A DNA stretch of 64,000 nucleotides from Bdellovibrionales bacterium (GTDB taxonomy: Bacteria > Myxococcota > XYA12-FULL-58-9 > SYDY01). A model generated the notes under the pieces. It worked only from the letters and a program-made list of their open reading frames with translations. It was not told the origin of the DNA and did not search any database. Of the stretch, positions 1,823 to 19,704 are shown piece after piece. Where the stretch lies: the NCBI GenBank assembly GCA_005801425.1, contig SYDY01000027.1, positions 8,444 through 72,443 on the forward strand, read 5' to 3'. Position numbers and translations under genes: made by a program. The first letter of the stretch is position 1. Each line of letters begins with the position of its first letter.

Positions 1823-2710
1823 ATGGCCTCAATACAATTGAATGATTCGCACCATACGAAGCAAATAACGCTACTGCATTATGAAGAACCGGCTTCTTTG
1901 GCCCAGTCTTTGCTCGATATTTATTTGCCTCCGGGAAGCCGTGTGCAGCTTCCACATTTTGGAAGTGAAGGTGAAGAGCTGGATGGTCCAGCTCTTCATA
2001 TGTGGAATGAAAAATTCCAATGGCCGGGGGACAAGGAAAAAACGCGGGTTGATGTTAGCTTGCAAAGCGTCGAGACTGGATCGGCGCGATACCTGATTGT
2101 TGGGATCCAAGCCACGTCGCTTGATGGCGGTCTTTTTGACATTGTTCGGCATCTCGAATGCCGCTTGGATGGTTCACTTGATTTTCGTCGTGAAAGAACA
2201 CTTCTCCCGGAGAGCTTACGTGGCAATGGCTATGGTACGGGATTGATTGAACGGGAAATGACCTGGGTGAGGGAGCGGAGCAGGTATCCAGAAAGTACCA
2301 TTTCTATTCTGGCAACGCGTTTAGGAAATCCACCCGGACAATTTGTGTGGAGAAAATTTTTTGACTTTGCAAACGAGGATACCCAATCGTTTATTTCTGG
2401 AAAATACAGTGCTTGGGTCGACAGCAATGTTGCGAAATGGGCCTATGCAGCCAAGGTACCTGAAGCCGACTTACGCGAAATTCTACCTGCGACCATGGAG
2501 CATCCTTGGTCTTTGGATCAATGTGAGCTTCCACCCCTCTTGATGTCGCATTTCAAAAAGAAGGCAGAAAAGGAAGGCTATCGTGGCAATGCACTTGTTG
2601 CCTGGTATTTTTGGAATAGCGATGGCCTTTCAGGAGGTCATACGGATAGCAAGGGACTGGGCTGGGAAGGGATCCGGGTTGTGAACAAATCATGGCATGG
2701 TCCTCAATAG
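1823..2710 (+). CDS. Uncharacterised protein, paralog 2 of 4 (GNAT-like motif)
   Basis: 295-aa ORF with the same motif set ([46 protein letters not shown]). A GAGAGAAAG purine-rich stretch precedes the ATG. Confidence 0.6.
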   Translation: MASIQLNDSHHTKQITLLHYEEPASLAQSLLDIYLPPGSRVQLPHFGSEGEELDGPALHMWNEKFQWPGDKEKTRVDVSLQSVETGSARYLIVGIQATSLDGGLFDIVRHLECRLDGSLDFRRERTLLPESLRGNGYGTGLIEREMTWVRERSRYPESTISILATRLGNPPGQFVWRKFFDFANEDTQSFISGKYSAWVDSNVAKWAYAAKVPEADLREILPATMEHPWSLDQCELPPLLMSHFKKKAEKEGYRGNALVAWYFWNSDGLSGGHTDSKGLGWEGIRVVNKSWHGPQ

Positions 2711-2725
2711 AATGGATAAAATAAT

Positions 2726-3577
2726 ATGGCAGCAATCGATTTTCATCCTCAACAGGTGCTCAACATCGCGTATGGGCAAAACGTAAATCCAGTGACATTG
2801 GTCCACTCGTTGGTTGATCTCTATGTTCCGGCAGGGCAATCAGTGGCATTGCGTGCCGTGTCGCACCCGCCCCATATCTTGGGCGCCTGGAAATTTAGGA
2901 TGCAATGGCCCCATGACGATGTTGCATATGAATATAGCGCGGACTTGATACAAAATGATTCAACGTTTAATTTTTTTATTGAGGGACACGATTTTGATGT
3001 GATTAGAAAGATTGATTTTTGTTCGGGGGGTGAAATCAATTTTTACCGTGATATTACAGAATATCCTTCCGATCAGCGTGGCCATGGTTATGGTCGCGAA
3101 GCATTGTATCGAGAAATAGACTGGGTGCGTTCGCGAAGTACGCATCCAGACAGTCGGATATCAACCCATGCTGGCAATATAGGTACAAAACCATCGGGAC
3201 AATTTGTTTGGCGCACGATGTTTGAATTTGATGTTAAATCGTGTGCGAGAATTTCTGAGATATACACCGCTTGGAAAGAAACAAATATTAAAGCTTGGGC
3301 TATTGCAACAGGATGCAGTGAAAGCATTTTGCGACAATCTTTGCCTGCGACCATGGTGCAACCATGGTCGTTGGATGATTGTGTCCTGCCCGAAAATTTT
3401 TCGAAATATTTAAAGACACATGCCCAATCGGAAGGCTACCCGGGAAGAGCAACACTTGCTTGGGCGTTTTGGAATAGCGACTTACGCGATCAAGATCCCA
3501 AAGATAAAAAACTATTGAGCTGGGATGGTTGTCGCTATGTGAATCGACCGTGGAACGGTCCTGAATCGAAAGCATGA
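2726..3577 (+). CDS. Uncharacterised protein, paralog 3 of 4 (GNAT-like motif)
   Basis: 283-aa ORF with the same motif set ([43 protein letters not shown]). Confidence 0.6.
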   Translation: MAAIDFHPQQVLNIAYGQNVNPVTLVHSLVDLYVPAGQSVALRAVSHPPHILGAWKFRMQWPHDDVAYEYSADLIQNDSTFNFFIEGHDFDVIRKIDFCSGGEINFYRDITEYPSDQRGHGYGREALYREIDWVRSRSTHPDSRISTHAGNIGTKPSGQFVWRTMFEFDVKSCARISEIYTAWKETNIKAWAIATGCSESILRQSLPATMVQPWSLDDCVLPENFSKYLKTHAQSEGYPGRATLAWAFWNSDLRDQDPKDKKLLSWDGCRYVNRPWNGPESKA

Positions 3578-3623
3578 TTCTCCACTTTTTGTTATAGAAT
3601 GATGGAATATAAAGGATACATTG

Positions 3624-4484
3624 ATGGCAGCGATAGAATTACACCGGCGAAATCCTGTGAATATTATCGCATTGGCAGAATCGAAACCGACAGATTTTGC
3701 ACAATCGTTGCTAGACCTTTATTTGCCTGCAAGAACCCGTGTGGATCTGAGTGCATACGAATCGAAAGAAGCATTAAAGCAAACTCATCTGGGATGTTGG
3801 AATTTTACGTTTCAATGGCGCGATGGATCTCCAAGGCAAATGGGCAGTGTGGAAATCAAGTCGCTTGGAAACAAGATTACTTTTTCTGTTGAAGCCGAGG
3901 GCTTTGACATTCTCCGAGATATTTATCAGCTCTCAGATGGCTCAGTGGAGTTCCATATTGAGATGACGCAATATCCTCAAGAGGAGCGTGGTCAAGGCTA
4001 TGGCCAACAATTGCGGGTCAATGAAATACAATGGGTTTGTTTGCAGAGTAAACATCCCGATAGTGCCATTTACAGCCAATCAGTACGTTTTAAGTATGCA
4101 GAAGCGCCTCCAGGTCAATTTGTATGGCGAAAATCACTGGAGTTTGATGGAGGTGCGAAGCATAGAATCTCGGGATTTTATAAAAAGTGGGTGACAAGAA
4201 ATATGGAACGATGGTCGTATGCGACCCATATTTCAGAGCGTAAAATTCGCAGCATTTTACCCAAAGAAATGCAGCATCCATGGTCACTGGATGGATGTGT
4301 TCTTCCTGGTTCCTTGGGTAGGCATTTAAAGAAGATGGCAGAATTGGAAGGCTATCCTGGCAAAGACGTTCTTGCATGGGCGTTTTGGAACAGTGATGTT
4401 CGCAAAGGTGATCCACTTTGTGGCAAGGTGCTGGGTTGGTCAGGCATTCGATATGTCAATCGACCGTGGAACGGTCCTATTTAG
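3624..4484 (+). CDS. Uncharacterised protein, paralog 4 of 4 (GNAT-like motif)
   Basis: ORF 3621..4484. The ATG at 3624 is preceded by AAAGGA 7 nt upstream. Motifs [32 protein letters not shown] and [12 protein letters not shown]. Begins MAAIELH like paralog 3 (MAAIDFH). Confidence 0.6.
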
Positions 4485-12321: not shown

Positions 12322-13029
12322 GTGATTCACAAAACACGATTACATGGTGTGTGCTGTGTGTTGTTGATGGGATGTGCTGCAGGAAGCGCAGAAAGCCAGA
12401 ACCCAGAACAAAGCCAAAACGTGCCTTCCGAAGAGCCTGCTGCATGGGGACATAGCGAAGGGGGCATGCCTGCCATGGGCGGTGCGGATGTGGGGCGCAC
12501 CGGCGATGGGTCACATCTCAGATATTGGGGGGGATTTTGGAAAACGCCTACGGTGTCGAATGCGTATGATGTTTATGATATGACGATAGCCGGGCAGCTT
12601 ATTGTTACGCATTATGTGGACAACGTGCAACAGGGTGAATCAGAATGTCATTTCGTGGTGAATCACATCGATGAGCAAGCCGAGATTGATAACTACCGGG
12701 ATAGCTACTTGTTTCTGCAAAACGTAGCAGGTGGCGCAACCCCATTTAGCTATGTCGCCTTACACAAGAAAAATACAGGTACTGTTCCACTCCCTGTTTA
12801 TACACTGTTCATGTGCTTTCGTAACAATGCTGACGATACAAGGCATACTTTTTCGTCGCAAGCACTTGCCGAAGCGGATCTTGATTATCCCGAAGGTCCT
12901 GGGCGCCTCAATGCGGATGAAGAGCTCGAGGCTCCCGGCCAACTTGGATGCAATAAAGACATATCATTTACCCCCGCGCCGGCGACCGTCGGACGGGATT
13001 GGCTCACCGCGACAGTGTATACACCTTAA
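12322..13029 (+). CDS. Hypothetical lipoprotein, paralog B
   Basis: ORF 12208..13029. An in-frame GTG at 12322 is preceded by GGAGAAAA and gives VIHKTRLHGVCCVLLMGC (signal plus lipobox). The conserved blocks are shared with paralog A. Confidence 0.55.
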   Translation: MIHKTRLHGVCCVLLMGCAAGSAESQNPEQSQNVPSEEPAAWGHSEGGMPAMGGADVGRTGDGSHLRYWGGFWKTPTVSNAYDVYDMTIAGQLIVTHYVDNVQQGESECHFVVNHIDEQAEIDNYRDSYLFLQNVAGGATPFSYVALHKKNTGTVPLPVYTLFMCFRNNADDTRHTFSSQALAEADLDYPEGPGRLNADEELEAPGQLGCNKDISFTPAPATVGRDWLTATVYTP

Positions 13030-15212
13030 AGCGCCTTCAAAAAAGCGATCAACGCATTTTTGTCTTCGACAGACAGATTGCGGAATTTATTGCGCGAAGC
13101 TTCACCTTCTCCTGCGTGGCCCTCGATGGCTTCTTCCAACGTATCGGCAGCGCCTGAGTGAAGATAGGGTGCTGTTTGAGCGATACCCCACAAAGGCGGA
13201 GTGCGGAATTCATGGATCCCAGCAGGTCCATCTTCAATACCCAATGCATCTTCAGGCAAGATCGCATGCAAGAGCAGATCCGAATAGAGAAGCACTGGCG
13301 TGCCCGATCCATCGAGGCTCGGAATATGGCAGCTATCACAACCGAGTGTTCCAAAAATCTGTTCACCCTTTTGTTCCGTTGCTCCGCGTGGTCCAGGGAG
13401 TGGTGGTCCCAATGCGGCGACGAAAACGAGCAGATTGCGCATATCTGCGTCGGATGAGAATTCGGGATCATCCACCAGATCATCGTCGTGTTCTCGGCCG
13501 AATGTGAGTGGTGCTTGGTGCATGACAGTGATCCCAAGTTCAGCACTTGTTGCATCACGCATAAATTCGGCGAGACTCGGTACCTGTGCTTTCCAACCAA
13601 ATCGCCCAAGTCGGCCGTCCTGAAGAATCGCCGCGCGACCACTGATCCCATCAGCATTTTGATCGGTTGGATCTTCATTGTGTAAAATGGCGTTATCAGG
13701 AATTTTGTCCACAAGCCCAAGGCCCAACAAAGATGGCGTTTGGCGATGTTCAAAAACATTGATTGTAGGATCCGCAAAGACAGCACCGTTGTGGATGGCT
13801 GTGTGTTTGTGCAGAATTGTTCCACCGGCAGGTGTTTGGAATAGTCCATCAGAAAGAATTCCGTGGCGGATAACATTCACATCGTTGGGCCCTGCACCTC
13901 CTATGGCCGGTTGAAAATGACAGGCTCGGCATGAATCCGCATTAAATCGTGGTGAGCCAAGCCCCTGTGAGATCCCAATGTCGGCATCAAACAATCTTCG
14001 GCCCGCGAGGAAGATCTTTTCAATATAAGGGATCAGGGTTTCACTGGGGCCTCCCAAGCTTCCTGCCTCAGGCATGGGCGTATTGGGAGGAAGTAAACCT
14101 TGGCTTTTTGCGTAAGATCCACCCAATGATTTTAAAAACACAAGCAATGCGTTTTGATCGTCAGGACCAGCGGCTTGGAATTTTGTTCGAGAGGCCTCCG
14201 CCTCACCACCGTGCATCACAATAGCTTCTTTAATACTGGAAGCACGGCCATCGTGAAGGTATGGCCCAGTCGCTGCAATGCCCCACAAGGGCTGTGTACG
14301 AAATTCAGAACCACTTGCACGCTGCATCGTGATCCCATCGGCAAGATCGGGTCCCATGTCGTGCAGCAAAAGATCGCTAAAGAGATGAAGTGGCCCACGT
14401 GGAGAGAGAAGAGATGGCGTATGGCATGCGTTACAACCAAAATTGATAAATTGAGATTGTCCTCGTGTGCTTGTAGTGCTTAGGGGATCCAACTGGGGTG
14501 CAGCCAGTTGCGTCGCAAAGCTTACCAGATCCGAGAGGTCGTTGTCTGATAATTCAGGATCGGCAATATCATCTGTGTCTGTCTCGTTTTGCGTGGTGAT
14601 ACCCATGTGGTTCAATAACGAATGACGTACAATGCTTGCGATATCGGCGCTTTGCGCTTTGAGACCGAATCGACCAAGCTTTGATCCTTCATAGTTGGCG
14701 CGGCCACTGATCCCATCGGCATTCAAATCATCGGGATCTTCCCGCTGCATGATTTCGTGATCGGAAATTTCCTGAAGAAGCCCCATACCAAAAAGAGGGA
14801 CCGCATTTCGCTGTGCTGTGGATGCAATGGCGTGGTCGACGGCGGGGCGCGCAGAGATACCGGATCCGTAACCATACGCACGTATGATCACATGATCTGT
14901 AAGAACATAATTGCGATACAGCGAACTTGCGCCGCCGATCACGGGTCGCTCATGGCATGCAGCGCAGGATACAGCATTCAAAGTGGGGCCTACCCCCTCG
15001 GCATGTGTAAAGTGTTTGGCTGCCAATACTTTCCCTCGCTCAAAGGCCTGACGTTCTTCCTGGCTGATGGATGGAATACTCTCGCCAAGAGATGCCATGA
15101 GATCGCTTCCGAGTGGTGTATTCCTTGAATTGTCTCCATCGCGATGCTGGGCGCATCCTAGGGTCCCAGAGAGGATCAGCACGCATGATGCGAAAATAAT
15201 CCTATGGTGCAT
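13026..15212 (-). CDS. Di-haem cytochrome c peroxidase-like oxidoreductase (DUF1111 family), internally duplicated with four CXXCH motifs
   Basis: 728-aa ORF with an N-terminal signal (MHHRIIFASCVLILSGTLGC). Haem motifs CAACH, CNACH, CRACH and CDSCH. The N and C halves are repeated (DPDDLNADGISGRANYEGSKLGRFGLKAQ versus DPTDQNADGISGRAAILQDGRLGRFGWKAQ). Confidence 0.7.
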   Translation of the reverse strand: MHHRIIFASCVLILSGTLGCAQHRDGDNSRNTPLGSDLMASLGESIPSISQEERQAFERGKVLAAKHFTHAEGVGPTLNAVSCAACHERPVIGGASSLYRNYVLTDHVIIRAYGYGSGISARPAVDHAIASTAQRNAVPLFGMGLLQEISDHEIMQREDPDDLNADGISGRANYEGSKLGRFGLKAQSADIASIVRHSLLNHMGITTQNETDTDDIADPELSDNDLSDLVSFATQLAAPQLDPLSTTSTRGQSQFINFGCNACHTPSLLSPRGPLHLFSDLLLHDMGPDLADGITMQRASGSEFRTQPLWGIAATGPYLHDGRASSIKEAIVMHGGEAEASRTKFQAAGPDDQNALLVFLKSLGGSYAKSQGLLPPNTPMPEAGSLGGPSETLIPYIEKIFLAGRRLFDADIGISQGLGSPRFNADSCRACHFQPAIGGAGPNDVNVIRHGILSDGLFQTPAGGTILHKHTAIHNGAVFADPTINVFEHRQTPSLLGLGLVDKIPDNAILHNEDPTDQNADGISGRAAILQDGRLGRFGWKAQVPSLAEFMRDATSAELGITVMHQAPLTFGREHDDDLVDDPEFSSDADMRNLLVFVAALGPPLPGPRGATEQKGEQIFGTLGCDSCHIPSLDGSGTPVLLYSDLLLHAILPEDALGIEDGPAGIHEFRTPPLWGIAQTAPYLHSGAADTLEEAIEGHAGEGEASRNKFRNLSVEDKNALIAFLKAL

Positions 15213-15302
15213 AACCCTCTTGTTTGCTGTATTTTTGAGTATGTTGCCAAGATCTTGCAGAATGGTTCTTAACTATAAATTTCAACGGTTAAGGAGCCTA
15301 TT

Positions 15303-15485
15303 ATGAAGTTATTAATTGATCGAAGTGTTGTCTTTTTTACCGTATTATTCAGCACAGGTGTTGCGCATGCGATGATGCCTGAAATATCGCCTTCGAGCTT
15401 TCTTTCGCTGATATCGATGATTGGTGGCGGATGGGTTTTGTTCCGATATCGCCAGTACAGTTCAGCGCGCAGCAATAAGAGCTAA
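15303..15485 (+). CDS. Small secreted protein consisting only of a signal peptide and a PEP/VPEID-CTERM-like sorting signal (putative exosortase substrate)
   Basis: 60 aa. AAGGAG lies 7 nt upstream of the ATG. The layout is MKLLIDRSVVFFTVLFSTGVAHA signal peptide, then MPEIS, then a TM segment (FLSLISMIGGGWVLF), then RYRQ plus a tail. It sits 4 nt upstream of the exosortase gene. Confidence 0.6.
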   Translation: MKLLIDRSVVFFTVLFSTGVAHAMMPEISPSSFLSLISMIGGGWVLFRYRQYSSARSNKS

Positions 15486-15491
15486 TGCGTG

Positions 15492-16817
15492 ATGCTCGAT
15501 GCCAATGAGATCAGGCAATGGCTTGATTTCAACGTCGGATCTTTTCGGTTATCGCCTGTGTGGGTGCTCGTCTATTGGCCTATTCTTGTTGGCATCGCTG
15601 CTGCGTTTGCGTTGCGTAAAATCAAAAAAAATGAAGTGATTCGGCGTTACGGCATTCTTCTTGTGTTGCCATTGCTTATCAATATCGTGTTGCTGTTCAC
15701 GGGATGGTTTTTTCACGAGCGTATGGGACAACGCATCGATCATGCCTTGGTTCAGCATGCTGTGATTGCACCTGTGTCATGGATTTTTAATACTTTGCTT
15801 CAGATCCCTGTGATCAGAGATCAGCCTCTCCATATCGGTGTTGATTCCTTTTCTGGCTACATCGCGCCAAGTTGCGCAGGAACCCAAGGATTGTTTATTT
15901 TTACGATGCTTGCTGGCGCATGGTATTTTGTTCTTCGTCCGACGACTTTTCGGCATCGATTGATTTATTTGGTGCTTATGTGCGTTGGTCTTTGTTTGGG
16001 TTTTGTCGGCAATTGGCTGCGTCTTGTTGCGTTGCTTTATGTTGGGGCACGTGTTGATCGCGATCTGGCCCTCGCAGGATTTCATGACGCTGCAGGTGGG
16101 ATCATTGTGCTGTTGAATTTTGCATTGTTTGCGTGGGTCACGCATCGTGCATTGAAGGGTGATGATGGCAAAGCATGGTTTGCGGGCAATCCTGTGGTGC
16201 CCTATGTAATGCCTTGGATGGTGTGGATGGCATTGGGGATGCTTTCTGCGCTGGTCACGGTGCAATGGGATTGGTCGTATCCGTTGCGTGCTGTGATTGT
16301 ATTTATCATCCTAGGGGTGCTGGCTGCGCCTTTTCCTCAGACAATGATAAGGGCGGTTCGCGAACCGCCCCTACAGTCTGTTCTTGCAGGTCTATTCATC
16401 GCAGCTGTATGGATTATTTGGGGCCATTACGTGCTCGACCATGACTTTGCAGGTCGCATGCCAACTTCACTACGTTTTTATCACATGTGGATCGTCGGTC
16501 GCATTTTAGGAACCGTACTTCTGATTCCAGTGATTGAAGAACTCGCTTTTCGTGGATTTCTTGCGCGCGCTTTACAAAAGCCCATGTTTCAAGATCTCAC
16601 GCCATCGGATCTTCGTTGGCCGGCCATGCTTATTTCATCGGTGATTTTTGGTGTTTTTCACGACGCGCTTGCGGTCCCAGGCGTGGGTGCCGGATTTATA
16701 TTTGCGTTGCTTTATCGCAAGAGTGGGACGCTTGCATCCCCGATCATTGCGCATGCTGTTGCAAATCTTGGTGTCGCTTTGTACGCGCTAACCACAGGGC
16801 AGTGGCAGCATCTTTAA
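15492..16817 (+). CDS. Exosortase fused to a CPBP (CAAX protease/Abi) intramembrane metalloprotease domain (exosortase E/protease-like)
   Basis: N-terminal polytopic domain with the exosortase Cys motif (IAPSCAGTQG), GNWLRLV (Asn/Arg) and a GFHDAAGG His motif. C-terminal CPBP motifs EELAFRGF, FGVFH and HAVAN. The ORF's GTG at 15489 is an alternative start. Confidence 0.75.
   Translation: MLDANEIRQWLDFNVGSFRLSPVWVLVYWPILVGIAAAFALRKIKKNEVIRRYGILLVLPLLINIVLLFTGWFFHERMGQRIDHALVQHAVIAPVSWIFNTLLQIPVIRDQPLHIGVDSFSGYIAPSCAGTQGLFIFTMLAGAWYFVLRPTTFRHRLIYLVLMCVGLCLGFVGNWLRLVALLYVGARVDRDLALAGFHDAAGGIIVLLNFALFAWVTHRALKGDDGKAWFAGNPVVPYVMPWMVWMALGMLSALVTVQWDWSYPLRAVIVFIILGVLAAPFPQTMIRAVREPPLQSVLAGLFIAAVWIIWGHYVLDHDFAGRMPTSLRFYHMWIVGRILGTVLLIPVIEELAFRGFLARALQKPMFQDLTPSDLRWPAMLISSVIFGVFHDALAVPGVGAGFIFALLYRKSGTLASPIIAHAVANLGVALYALTTGQWQHL
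16351..16374. repeat. Single REP-like unit (GGGCGGTTCGCGAACCGCCCCTAC) inserted in-frame within the exosortase-CPBP coding sequence
   Basis: Exact match to the repeat family unit. It translates as (R)AVREPPLQ(S) at the junction between the exosortase and CPBP domains. Confidence 0.8.
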
Positions 16818-17506
16818 GCTTTATCTTTCCACAAATGCAAACTCACAAACAAAAACAGTTGATGCAGATGGGTGACGGCACTTTGATTCAGATCGTATGA
16901 ATCACGCCCTGACATATTGAAAATAAATGTTTGGTAGGGTGCACGGATGTAACTGTAGTCGAGGCCTACTTTGAGATAGGGCGGAAAATAATATTCGAGT
17001 GCAGTGCCAAGTCGCATACTCTTCCATGTTTTCCACGCCACTTCATTGTAACCCCCGGTGCCAGGATTGTAGCCCTGGTAGCTTAATCCCCAACCTCCGA
17101 AAAAAGAGGGCTCAAGAGGTTTAAGCCATTCGGGCAAACGTTGTTGCCAGTGCCATACGGGGTACACGCGCACGCCGGAATGCCAATGGGCCGACCACTC
17201 ACGATTTTTTTGATCGGTAATGTTGCGTCCGTGGCCCGTTAATGCGGTTTCAATCGCAGCGTAACCTTTGATATTGAAACCAAGATTAAGCAGCGTGCTT
17301 GCCCCTTTGCTTAAGTTGGTGCCAAGCAAATTGGCATCCCCTGGGGGTTGGTTGCTGGCCGAAAAATAACCGGTGTTGACGTTGGTGCCATTGACTGCGG
17401 ATCCGCCGAGGCCAATACCGATATAGCCACCTGGGCGTGCTTCCGCGTTGGACCACACAGTGCAAAGGAACAGCGGCAGAAGAAATCCAACAGAGGTGGT
17501 CTTCAT
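16814..17506 (-). CDS. Outer-membrane beta-barrel protein (OmpA-like/OmpW-like porin family), putative
   Basis: ORF 16814..17524. The internal start MKTTSVGFLLPLFLCTVWSNAEA is a typical Sec signal. Alternating aromatic/Gly-rich strands and a C-terminal aromatic (…YQTF-like) region. Confidence 0.55.
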   Translation of the reverse strand: MKTTSVGFLLPLFLCTVWSNAEARPGGYIGIGLGGSAVNGTNVNTGYFSASNQPPGDANLLGTNLSKGASTLLNLGFNIKGYAAIETALTGHGRNITDQKNREWSAHWHSGVRVYPVWHWQQRLPEWLKPLEPSFFGGWGLSYQGYNPGTGGYNEVAWKTWKSMRLGTALEYYFPPYLKVGLDYSYIRAPYQTFIFNMSGRDSYDLNQSAVTHLHQLFLFVSLHLWKDKA

Positions 17507-17582
17507 GCCTACTTCGTACCACATCTACGAAGAACTCTCAAACGCGGTTGACCCGAAGACAGCCTTCGGGCAACGTCGCTTC

Positions 17583-19100: not shown

Positions 19101-19183
19101 TGGTAACCGCTCAGGAGATCTGGGCCATCGTATCTAAAATTGTTTCAGCGATCTCTGTTTAAGCATATCGTTAGCGTTGCCTT

Positions 19184-19663
19184 GCCATCCGTGTGCAGGT
19201 CCTCGCACGTCCACAAAAGCCACGTGACGCGCATGACTTTTGACTTGAATGTGTGTTTCTTGAGCGCGTCACAACGCTTTTGTGTCTTGTGCTCCGGTCC
19301 GTTCACACGGCAAGTGGCAAGGCAACGCTGTTTAGGGTTCGATGATTTTTCAGCCATCGCAGAGCCGGAGTTCCCGATTTTGCGGGGATGGCATCTTGAT
19401 ATGATCGGGCTGCATATCTACATATGTGACCAAGAGCGAGATACACGGGGTTCAATTTCAATCATAGAATGTTATCTGTTCTCTTTTGGTATACATGGTT
19501 AGTGTGACATGACAGCAAGCAGTGTCTCGCCACTTGCCGTGTGAACGGACCGGAGCACAAGACACAAAAGCGTTGTGACGCGTTTAAAAAATCCACTTCA
19601 CATCAAAATTTTATGCGCGTCACGTGGCTTTTGTGGACGTGCGAGGACCTGCACACGGATGGC
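19184..19663. repeat. Large imperfect inverted repeat (two perfect arm blocks of 51 and 54 bp separated by a symmetric 30-nt mismatch, with a 210-nt central loop)
   Basis: 19184-19234 is the reverse complement of 19613-19663, and 19265-19318 is the reverse complement of 19529-19582. The 30-nt segments 19235-19264 and 19583-19612 are not complementary. Intergenic between the ALDH gene and the GGDEF gene. Confidence 0.9.
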
Positions 19664-19704
19664 GAGATACTGCAAAAAAATAAGGATTTAAGCTTCGGAA
19701 TTTC

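Follow-up and report, generated by a model that had tools for sequence, protein, structure and literature searches.

What is a protein made of little more than a signal peptide and a sorting signal doing beside a membrane enzyme of the exosortase superfamily, and do the two together amount to a new kind of system? The question is raised by a 64,000-nucleotide stretch of DNA from a Bdellovibrionales bacterium (contig SYDY01000027.1, positions 8,444 to 72,443 of the forward strand; hereafter the window, whose own numbering is used throughout). Here an open reading frame (ORF) of 60 amino acids (aa) directly precedes the gene for a 442-aa fusion of an exosortase with a CPBP protease. Our analysis indicates that positions 15291-16817 very likely form a self-contained two-gene cassette of the VPEID-CTERM/exosortase E-protease kind, in a divergent short-form version. 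The cassette belongs to an already described system, of which it is a divergent member, and is not a new type of system. What is new here is modest: a deep-branching short form with an enzyme that falls just short of its curated model and a substrate that the curated models do not detect at all.

The best NCBIfam match of the enzyme is TIGR04162, "exosortase E/protease, VPEID-CTERM system", at 148.1 bits over profile positions 167-514 of 516. The enzyme also passes the exosortase/archaeosortase signature TIGR04178 (42.2 bits, cutoff 23), the model TIGR03008 for the CAAX-protease-related protein of PEP-CTERM systems (114 bits, cutoff 81.05) and the Pfam families PF09721 (33.0 bits, cutoff 25.7) and PF02517 (65.9 bits, cutoff 22.4). 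TIGR04162 proteins join an exosortase domain (N-terminal) and a CPBP/CAAX-protease-like domain (C-terminal) in one chain, and the scores bear out the exosortase E/protease fusion that an earlier note on this DNA, written from the sequence, had recognized. All of the enzyme motifs quoted in that note are present. In an alignment of the window enzyme with 17 homologues (18 sequences in total) they fall on invariant columns: C129 (IAPSCAGTQG), N175 and R178 (GNWLRLV) and H199 (GFHD) of the exosortase, and E350, E351 and R355 (EELAFRGF), H391, H422 and N426 of the CPBP protease. The exosortase catalytic residues C129, R178 and H199 are therefore kept, and the C-terminal half has the EExxxR, FxxxH and HxxxN catalytic motifs together with the CPBP fold. 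The AlphaFold2 model of the enzyme is all-helical, with about 12 membrane helices. In both topologies favoured by a rule-based positive-inside tally (16:8 and 14:10), C129 and H199 are predicted to lie outside and the EE motif inside.

The 60-aa ORF starts with ATG, and gene calls for it are present in the NCBI, ENA and Logan records. Its product reads MKLLIDRSVVFFTVLFSTGVAHA before and MMPEISPSSFLSLISMIGGGWVLFRYRQYSSARSNKS after the predicted cleavage site. The predicted signal peptide has an n-region with K2 and R7, an h-region SVVFFTVLFSTGV and a c-region AHA, with the cut predicted between A23 and M24. Its hydrophobic core is separated from the signature motif by only 3 residues (counted by hand, by the rule of the family survey described below). 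MPEIS fits the pattern x-P-E-[ILMV]-[DSNG], and motif, transmembrane segment and basic cluster follow each other in the tripartite order of sorting signals. The 60-mer contains no Cys. The C-terminal extension behind its basic cluster has counterparts on the tails of three homologous loci, L088, L081 and L019. Sequence, motif and hydropathy support the earlier description of the protein, in which a predicted signal peptide runs straight into a sorting signal and no passenger lies between them. The strong ribosome-binding site reported before the ORF was also found, as AAGGAG with a 6-nucleotide (nt) spacer.

The neighbourhoods of homologous enzymes put this arrangement in context. A single-sequence search for such loci in genomes found none; an alignment-based search gave 80 genomic loci of homologues, and the script scan covered 82 loci. 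The scan looked for a C-terminal xPE[ILMVF][DSNGE] motif followed by a hydrophobic segment and a basic cluster. It found 94 tail-bearing candidates, distributed over 70 of the 82 homologous loci, with a median length of 58 aa; 91 of them are on the same strand as the enzyme. The tail-bearing genes lie upstream of the enzyme in 47 loci and downstream in 16. A passenger is missing from 61 of 91 neighbours, in which at most 8 residues separate the hydrophobic core of the signal peptide from the motif, and in some family members a passenger is present, from 16 to over 60 residues long. Motif variants among the 94 neighbours include APEIS (two), MPEVN (one), VPEMS (eight) and VPEVS (one). For example, locus L002 has, directly upstream of the enzyme, a 54-aa gene with the precomputed annotation PF27847 "VPEID-CTERM"; its product is MNQMMMKVAGLALLGIGMSGACLA up to the cleavage site and VVPEIDPASGGSALALLAGAMLMIRGRRRR beyond it, that is, a signal peptide and then immediately a sorting signal. 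The transmembrane sequence of the family tail is unusually conserved (consensus VPEIDPGSAVSALALLSGGLLVIRGRRRRK). In position, strand, size and architecture the 60-aa ORF matches these neighbours. The proposal that the 60-mer is the cognate substrate of the enzyme thus gains strong synteny, with a similar small same-strand neighbour in 70 of 82 loci. The novelty that the earlier note implied for the minimal design is lost: since cargo-less neighbours are the family norm (61 of 91; median 58 aa), the design of the window cassette is not special.

The VPEID-CTERM/exosortase E pair was reportedly named as a dedicated (single-target) system by Haft, Payne and Selengut in 2012, and no mention of VPEID-CTERM was found in the literature searched. 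Several loci carry 2-4 tandem copies of small tail genes (e.g., L049 and L062). In Marinicaulis metagenome-assembled genomes (MAGs), three to four tandem small genes with VPEMS or VPEMD tails stand upstream of the enzyme (L049, 1283-2063; L062, 1219-2063; L022, 432-2156), so the label 'dedicated single-target' fails in places. No neighbour family recurs widely across the 82 loci, and clustering returned mostly antisense or alternate-frame shadows of the enzyme gene. The sole real recurrent neighbour is a fatty-acid hydroxylase gene (PF04116, 103 bits; L051, 4321-5292, minus strand, and 13 other loci), which occurs in 14 of the 82 loci and has no counterpart in the window; for one clade it may point to a connection with lipids.

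Within the window, the 60-mer stands out by its architecture and by two scoring schemes derived from the family. The strict pattern of signal peptide, motif, transmembrane segment and basic cluster is matched by one of 1,511 six-frame segments, namely the 60-aa ORF, and by this pattern the 64 kb contain no other candidate cargo. The 60-mer also comes first of the 1,511 segments when they are scored with a hidden Markov model (HMM) of 89 distinct family tails (8.0 bits, E 0.23). With an ungapped, motif-anchored family matrix it has the best score among 59,321 positions, 11.2 bits against 5.2 bits for the next, and none of 100,000 shuffles reached this score. When its tail is laid ungapped against the family consensus, the identities are P, E, I, P, S, S, G, G, R and R, and R48 and R50 fall on the consensus arginines R24 and R26. 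By architecture and position the 60-mer can be counted as a VPEID-CTERM-type member; the sequence models place it there weakly.

Several observations weigh against the assignment of the cassette to this family. The enzyme scores 1.9 bits under the TIGR04162 cutoff of 150 (of 10 homologues scored for comparison, 9 lie above the cutoff, at 164-227 bits, and one below it, at 143.6), and it has at most 130 residues before the catalytic Cys, compared with at least 199 in 78 of 78 parsed loci. The TIGRFAM search proposed earlier for both ORFs succeeded for the enzyme, to the extent that TIGR04162 is its best model, and failed for the 60-mer, on which TIGR04161 (cutoff 33 bits) gives no hit at E <= 10. 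Precomputed annotation likewise puts no Pfam family, and thus no PF27847, on the 60-mer. Its matrix total of 11.2 bits compares with 28.8-73 bits for true members (leave-one-out). The first 8 positions, which cover the motif, contribute +17.0 bits and the remaining 20, which cover the transmembrane segment and the basic cluster, -5.8 bits; the transmembrane segment is atypical in comparison with the family consensus ...SAVSALALLSGGLLVIRGRRRR. A scan of 15213-15290, upstream of the cassette, found no match to the sigma-70 consensus. The role suggested below for the CPBP domain is read from predicted topology, and the classical logic of anchoring a protein fails to explain why a passenger-less system should exist at all.

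The silence of TIGR04161 means little, because the model fails on 11 of 11 clear positional analogues: none reaches 33 bits (the best score 32.3 and 24.8), and four of ten give no hit at all. The analogues missed in this way carry canonical xPEIx tails (L007-L086, e.g., L008, L028, L045, L031 and L037). Many small genes of the VPEID-CTERM type are probably unannotated in public genomes. In a search of 5.8 billion proteins the 60-mer matched only itself, which leaves no paralogue or orthologue for a conservation analysis. This lack of relatives parallels the isolation of its enzyme. The enzyme was searched in two ways, by a word-indexed search of the same 5.8 billion proteins and by an exhaustive HMMER search of 1.84 billion representatives; in both, the nearest relatives are about 33-35% identical, besides a 99% identical copy (P0001).

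The host itself appears to come from a deep-branching, Myxococcota-like lineage. No other sequence exceeds 64% identity to the valyl-tRNA synthetase gene of the window, and the nearest sources with a name are Myxococcota or "Deltaproteobacteria" MAGs. The window variant of the cassette is found on ENA assembly ERZ27257035 (k141_910289, 253 kb) and a sibling variant on ERZ27257033 (k141_712193, 350 kb). Over 13,326 bp, only 10 substitutions separate the window from the sibling assembly (L001), and all of them lie in 15847-15938. They comprise four non-synonymous changes (S120F, T132V, M140I and G143V) and five synonymous codons, and leave the catalytic residues untouched. The patch resembles a brief tract of recombination or gene conversion, or else micro-diversity between strains that is concentrated at the active-site helix.

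The main departure of the window enzyme from its family is at the N-terminus. Canonical XrtE proteins are 504-560 aa long and begin with a module (TIGR04162 positions 1-166, about three helices, with an LLxxE...D signature) that the alignment finds absent from the window enzyme, a deficit of about 100 residues. A profile of this module gives the first 100 residues of the enzyme 4.0 bits, compared with 17-150 bits for members (leave-one-out). The idea that the short N-terminus is unique to the window was considered and rejected, as the exhaustive search recovered a second true short form, P0188, and possibly a third, P0210. P0188 is an unannotated 440-aa protein (locus L088; Logan SRR15198260, contig 141578). 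It is collinear with the window enzyme to within one residue (91-442 against 90-439) at 30% identity. Its junction with the gene upstream, TAA-TCC-ATG (200-208), has the same frame and geometry as TAA-TGC-GTG in the window. The upstream gene ends in ...GSAPELSSDAAGGALLLLAATLLLIDSRKRSRHLRKEDRNNNSSSD (the longer end is given as ...GTTTGTTTGTTTGGSTASSSGSAPELSSDAAGGALLLLAATLLLIDSRKRSRHLRKEDRNNNSSSD), with a Thr/Gly-rich linker, an APELS-transmembrane-basic tail and then an extension. In the substrates of both true short forms, the fifth motif residue is thus Ser and the tail is extended at its C-terminus. The match in enzyme and in junction indicates that the short N-terminus marks a subtype that recurs together with a closely coupled substrate gene.

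Two further short proteins were considered. P0181 (428 aa, L090) was rejected as a short form, being apparently a mis-called start of a 504-aa ORF (2273-3787); that ORF has the canonical LLxxE...D N-terminus and starts 10 nt after the stop codon of a 54-aa neighbour with an LPEID tail. P0210 (447 aa, L089, 2501-3844) is likewise short and XrtE/CPBP-like, with the Cys preceded by about 130 residues, and is encoded downstream of two glycosyltransferase genes. No small ORF with a PE tail was found near it in the stretch examined, and it may represent a subtype linked to exopolysaccharide (EPS).

The two genes of the window cassette lie on the plus strand in the same reading frame, with the TAA and one codon between them. 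The earlier note missed the shared frame and gave a gap of four nucleotides, whereas the actual gap from stop to GTG is 3 nt. Because the frame is shared, the 60-aa ORF had to be tested as a split enzyme N-terminus, the severed beginning of an enzyme of about 504 aa interrupted by an in-frame nonsense codon, by a sequencing error or by a stop that is read through in a programmed way. The single TAA plus one codon, the sum of 60 + 2 + 442 = 504 aa, which comes near the 504-560 aa of the family, the roughly 100 residues that the enzyme lacks N-terminally and the two hydrophobic segments of the 60-mer would all suit such an origin. Nevertheless, it was rejected and is extremely unlikely, on four grounds. 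The read-through product gains nothing on TIGR04162 (147.4 compared with 148.1 bits); on leave-one-out N-terminal profiles, where members score 17-150 bits, the 60-mer scores -0.6 and the read-through product 2.6; P0188 is a second true short form, collinear with the window enzyme; and L088 has the same junction behind an unmistakable substrate gene, with its Thr/Gly-rich linker and APELS tail. The TAA is also kept in both sibling assemblies, which counts for little because the two are near-identical. By homology three helices are missing, not two, and a two-helix fusion would invert the orientation of the enzyme; this argument is suggestive only, because the two topology tallies leave the side of the enzyme N-terminus unsettled (16:8 against 14:10). 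We regard the junction instead as probably one of translational coupling. That a stop, one codon and a start are kept across enzymes about 30% identical suggests coupling by termination and reinitiation.

If the 60-aa ORF is a gene of its own, it might still be a chance or unexpressed frame, with the substrates of the enzyme encoded elsewhere or not existing. Its failure on TIGR04161 and PF27847, the lack of any homologue but itself among the 5.8 billion proteins and family-profile scores that are low when taken by themselves (8.0 and 11.2 bits) point in this direction. They are outweighed by the canonical AAGGAG with its 6-nt spacer, by the lone strict-pattern match in 1,511 segments falling at the exact syntenic position, and by the first rank among 59,321 positions with no shuffle in 100,000 reaching the score. 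TIGR04161 also fails on all 11 unambiguous analogues, with no hit for four of ten, and the orphan status of the ORF mirrors that of an enzyme whose nearest relative is 33% identical; we therefore consider a chance frame very unlikely. A real but different role is easier to imagine: the 60-mer could be a true partner that is not consumed, a regulatory, inhibitory, priming or structural subunit, while the real cargo is encoded elsewhere in the genome. It could, for instance, fill the substrate groove or replace the missing N-terminal helices. Such a role would account for the absence of a passenger to sort, for a family tail whose transmembrane sequence is conserved beyond the need of a generic anchor, for the lack of canonical N-terminal helices in the window enzyme and for the tight coupling of the two genes. 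It is at odds with a tail that has the exact tripartite form of cleaved sorting signals, and with the passengers (16 to over 60 residues) of some members and the Thr/Gly-rich linker, typical of sorted proteins, in L088. The 2-4 tandem copies in L049 and L062 suit substrates better than a stoichiometric subunit, and the 64-kb window holds no further candidate cargo. A non-consumed partner is accordingly unlikely, and we favour the 60-mer as the substrate of the enzyme.

Read from the sequences and from what is known of the family, the cassette might work as follows. The 60-aa product would be exported by the Sec pathway, and signal peptidase I would cut it after AHA. The remainder would be a single-span peptide of about 37 residues, with MMPEIS at the outer face of the inner membrane and RYR plus the short tail in the cytoplasm. 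The Cys129/Arg178/His199 triad of the co-translated enzyme, at the outer face, would recognize the motif together with the helix within the membrane and cleave at or near PEIS via an acyl-enzyme on Cys129. The Glu-Glu/His/His-Asn site of the CPBP domain, predicted at the inner face, may process or clear the leftover helix and basic stub, or may make a second cut. As there is no passenger, the output could not be a displayed protein domain. It would have to be a processing product of very few residues, a short peptide or a stub, that might be passed on to a lipid or polymer acceptor.

Comparison with known systems supports the placement and defines its limits. Fusions of this kind are not new: four EpsH-CAAX fusion proteins were reported in 2006 (Haft et al. 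2006, PMC1569441). The VPEID-CTERM/XrtE system (TIGR04161 and TIGR04162; PF27847) resembles the window cassette in its exosortase-CPBP fusion with catalytic residues kept, in the adjacent same-strand small gene for a signal peptide and an xPE[ILMV][DSNG]-transmembrane-basic tail, usually with no passenger, and in having no conserved accessory genes nearby. The window cassette differs in that its enzyme stays under the TIGR04162 cutoff, lacks about 100 N-terminal residues (about three helices) and has its nearest relative at 33% identity, in that its MPEIS tail has an atypical transmembrane segment, a 10-residue extension and no TIGR04161 or PF27847 hit, and in that its host is apparently a deep-branching Myxococcota-like bacterium and not an alphaproteobacterium. 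The L088 short form is closer in design, with its collinear 440-aa enzyme, the same junction, a motif ending in Ser (APELS) and an extension after the basic cluster. However, its substrate, which the contig end truncates, does have a passenger, of low complexity and rich in Thr and Gly, and the N-terminal 90 residues of the two enzymes have no detectable sequence similarity.

PEP-CTERM systems, with exosortase A (EpsH, XrtA) and a stand-alone TIGR03008 protein, belong to the same superfamily and share the Cys/Arg/His logic and the tripartite signal, and the CPBP domain of the window enzyme passes the TIGR03008 equivalog cutoff (114 compared with 81.05). These systems have many substrates per genome, with real passengers, and EPS loci with PrsK/PrsR, whereas the window has one adjacent cargo-less substrate and no EPS genes; the window enzyme also reaches only 35.9 bits on TIGR02602, whose cutoff is 105.55. 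Myxosortases, which are CPBP-family enzymes (MrtC, MrtX, MrtJ and MrtP), pair with tripartite MYXO-CTERM or JDVT-CTERM signals, sometimes from adjacent genes (Haft 2023, 10.1101/2023.06.07.544157; PMC11980579). The combination of a CPBP protease with a C-terminal tripartite signal is shared with the window, whose host is Myxococcota-like. Their signals, however, need an invariant Cys that the 60-mer lacks, they have no exosortase domain, and their models stay far under their cutoffs on the window enzyme (MrtP 42.5 of 250, Mrt_core 40.4 of 100 and MrtJ 38.9 of 75).

In Staphylococcus aureus, the precursor AgrD (about 46 aa) is made on ribosomes and cut twice: AgrB, a polytopic cysteine peptidase of the membrane, removes its C-terminal tail and the CPBP-family intramembrane protease MroQ its N-terminal leader (Zhao et al., bioRxiv 10.1101/2021.12.29.473670). 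The likeness to the window is one of functional analogy only, a membrane cysteine enzyme plus a CPBP protease, which in the window are fused and stand beside a 60-aa precursor. AgrB is not homologous to exosortases, and AgrD has neither a Sec signal nor a transmembrane-basic tail. Conversely, the 60-mer lacks the thiolactone-forming Cys, and no receptor kinase gene is adjacent to it. The MroQ model matches the window enzyme weakly (E 3.8e-4, 19.9 bits, cutoff 270).

The coordinates of the cassette and its parts are collected in Table 1. The promoter is inferred to lie upstream of the 60-aa ORF, in the intergenic stretch between it and a divergently transcribed di-haem oxidoreductase gene (13026-15212, minus strand); a promoter and terminator scan gave nothing useful near the cassette.

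Table 1. Features of the two-gene cassette, in window coordinates.
Feature	Position	Strand	Basis or detail
Intergenic stretch, presumed to hold the cassette promoter	15213..15290	+	gene layout
Shine-Dalgarno sequence AAGGAG	15291..15296	+	read from sequence; 6-nt spacer to ATG of the 60-aa ORF
Gene for 60-aa precursor, divergent VPEID-CTERM-type, no passenger domain	15303..15485	+	
Predicted Sec signal peptide, aa 1-23	15303..15371	+	inspection by -3/-1 rule and hydropathy
Signature motif M25-P-E-I-S29, counterpart of family VPEID	15375..15389	+	
Hydrophobic transmembrane segment P30-F47, 18 residues, PSSFLSLISMIGGGWVLF	15390..15443	+	hydropathy
Basic cluster R48-Y-R50 and 10-residue C-terminal extension QYSSARSNKS	15444..15482	+	
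Junction TAA-TGC-GTG: precursor stop, one codon, enzyme start, in one frame	15483..15491	+	
Gene for 442-aa short-form exosortase E/CPBP-protease fusion	15489..16817	+	GTG at 15489, ATG at 15492
Exosortase domain, about aa 1-225	15489..16163	+	TIGR04178 and PF09721 matches
92-nt patch around the catalytic Cys codon, with all differences between window and L001	15847..15938	+	
Catalytic codons C129, R178 and H199	15873-15875, 16020-16022, 16083-16085	+	
CPBP (Rce1-like, glutamic-type) intramembrane protease domain, aa 254-440	16248..16808	+	
CPBP motifs EELAFRG (E350/E351), FGVFH (H391) and HAVAN (H422, N426)	16536-16541 (E350/E351)	+	

The cassette is flanked by a divergent gene on one side and a convergent gene on the other. 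Horizontal transfer of the cassette was considered; its composition is unremarkable, with a GC content of 0.49 for xrtE and 0.50 for the window. The product of the divergent neighbour (13026-15212) has 728 aa, with two di-haem oxidoreductase regions of the DHOR type (PF06537) and cytochrome c motifs. The two regions suggest an internal duplication, and the protein has no evident link to the cassette. On the other side, a convergent ORF of 236 aa (16814-17524, minus strand; 214 aa in public gene calls) overlaps the stop codon of the enzyme by 4 nt. Its product has an N-terminal signal-like sequence and is rich in Gly and aromatic residues, so that an outer-membrane beta-barrel is possible; it has no Pfam hit. 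Farther downstream, between an aldehyde dehydrogenase gene and a GGDEF response-regulator gene, there is an intergenic inverted repeat (19181-19329 and 19518-19666) with arms of 149 nt that are 87% complementary and 188 nt apart. One arm holds a 27-nt internal palindrome pair, and the window contains just these two copies. The repeat may be an element like a miniature inverted-repeat transposable element (MITE) or a regulatory structure.

For the genome itself, the consequence is that the locus can now carry the annotation of a divergent exosortase E/protease paired with a dedicated VPEID-CTERM-like target; little else changes. For the family, the curated models prove narrow: a short-form xPE[IL]S subtype with C-terminal extensions, represented by the window and L088, goes unannotated. 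In most members the sorted protein is cargo-less, so surface anchoring of a domain cannot be the purpose. The accessory-free two-gene cassette would also be a convenient minimal system for studying exosortase chemistry, including where the cut is made, which acceptor is used and what the fused CPBP domain contributes.

A more speculative idea, and by our estimate a rather unlikely one, is that exosortase E-CPBP fusions with cargo-less precursors are not anchoring systems but two-protease machines for peptide maturation, with a logic like that of AgrB and MroQ acting on AgrD. If this were true, the outer cysteine domain would remove, and perhaps transfer, the C-terminal helix at xPEIx, while the inner-face CPBP domain or signal peptidase would trim the other end. 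The product would be a very short peptide, possibly linked to an acceptor, that serves as a signal or as a lipid or polymer cap. The short-form xPE[IL]S subtype would then be an unrecognized branch of such machines in Myxococcota-like bacteria.

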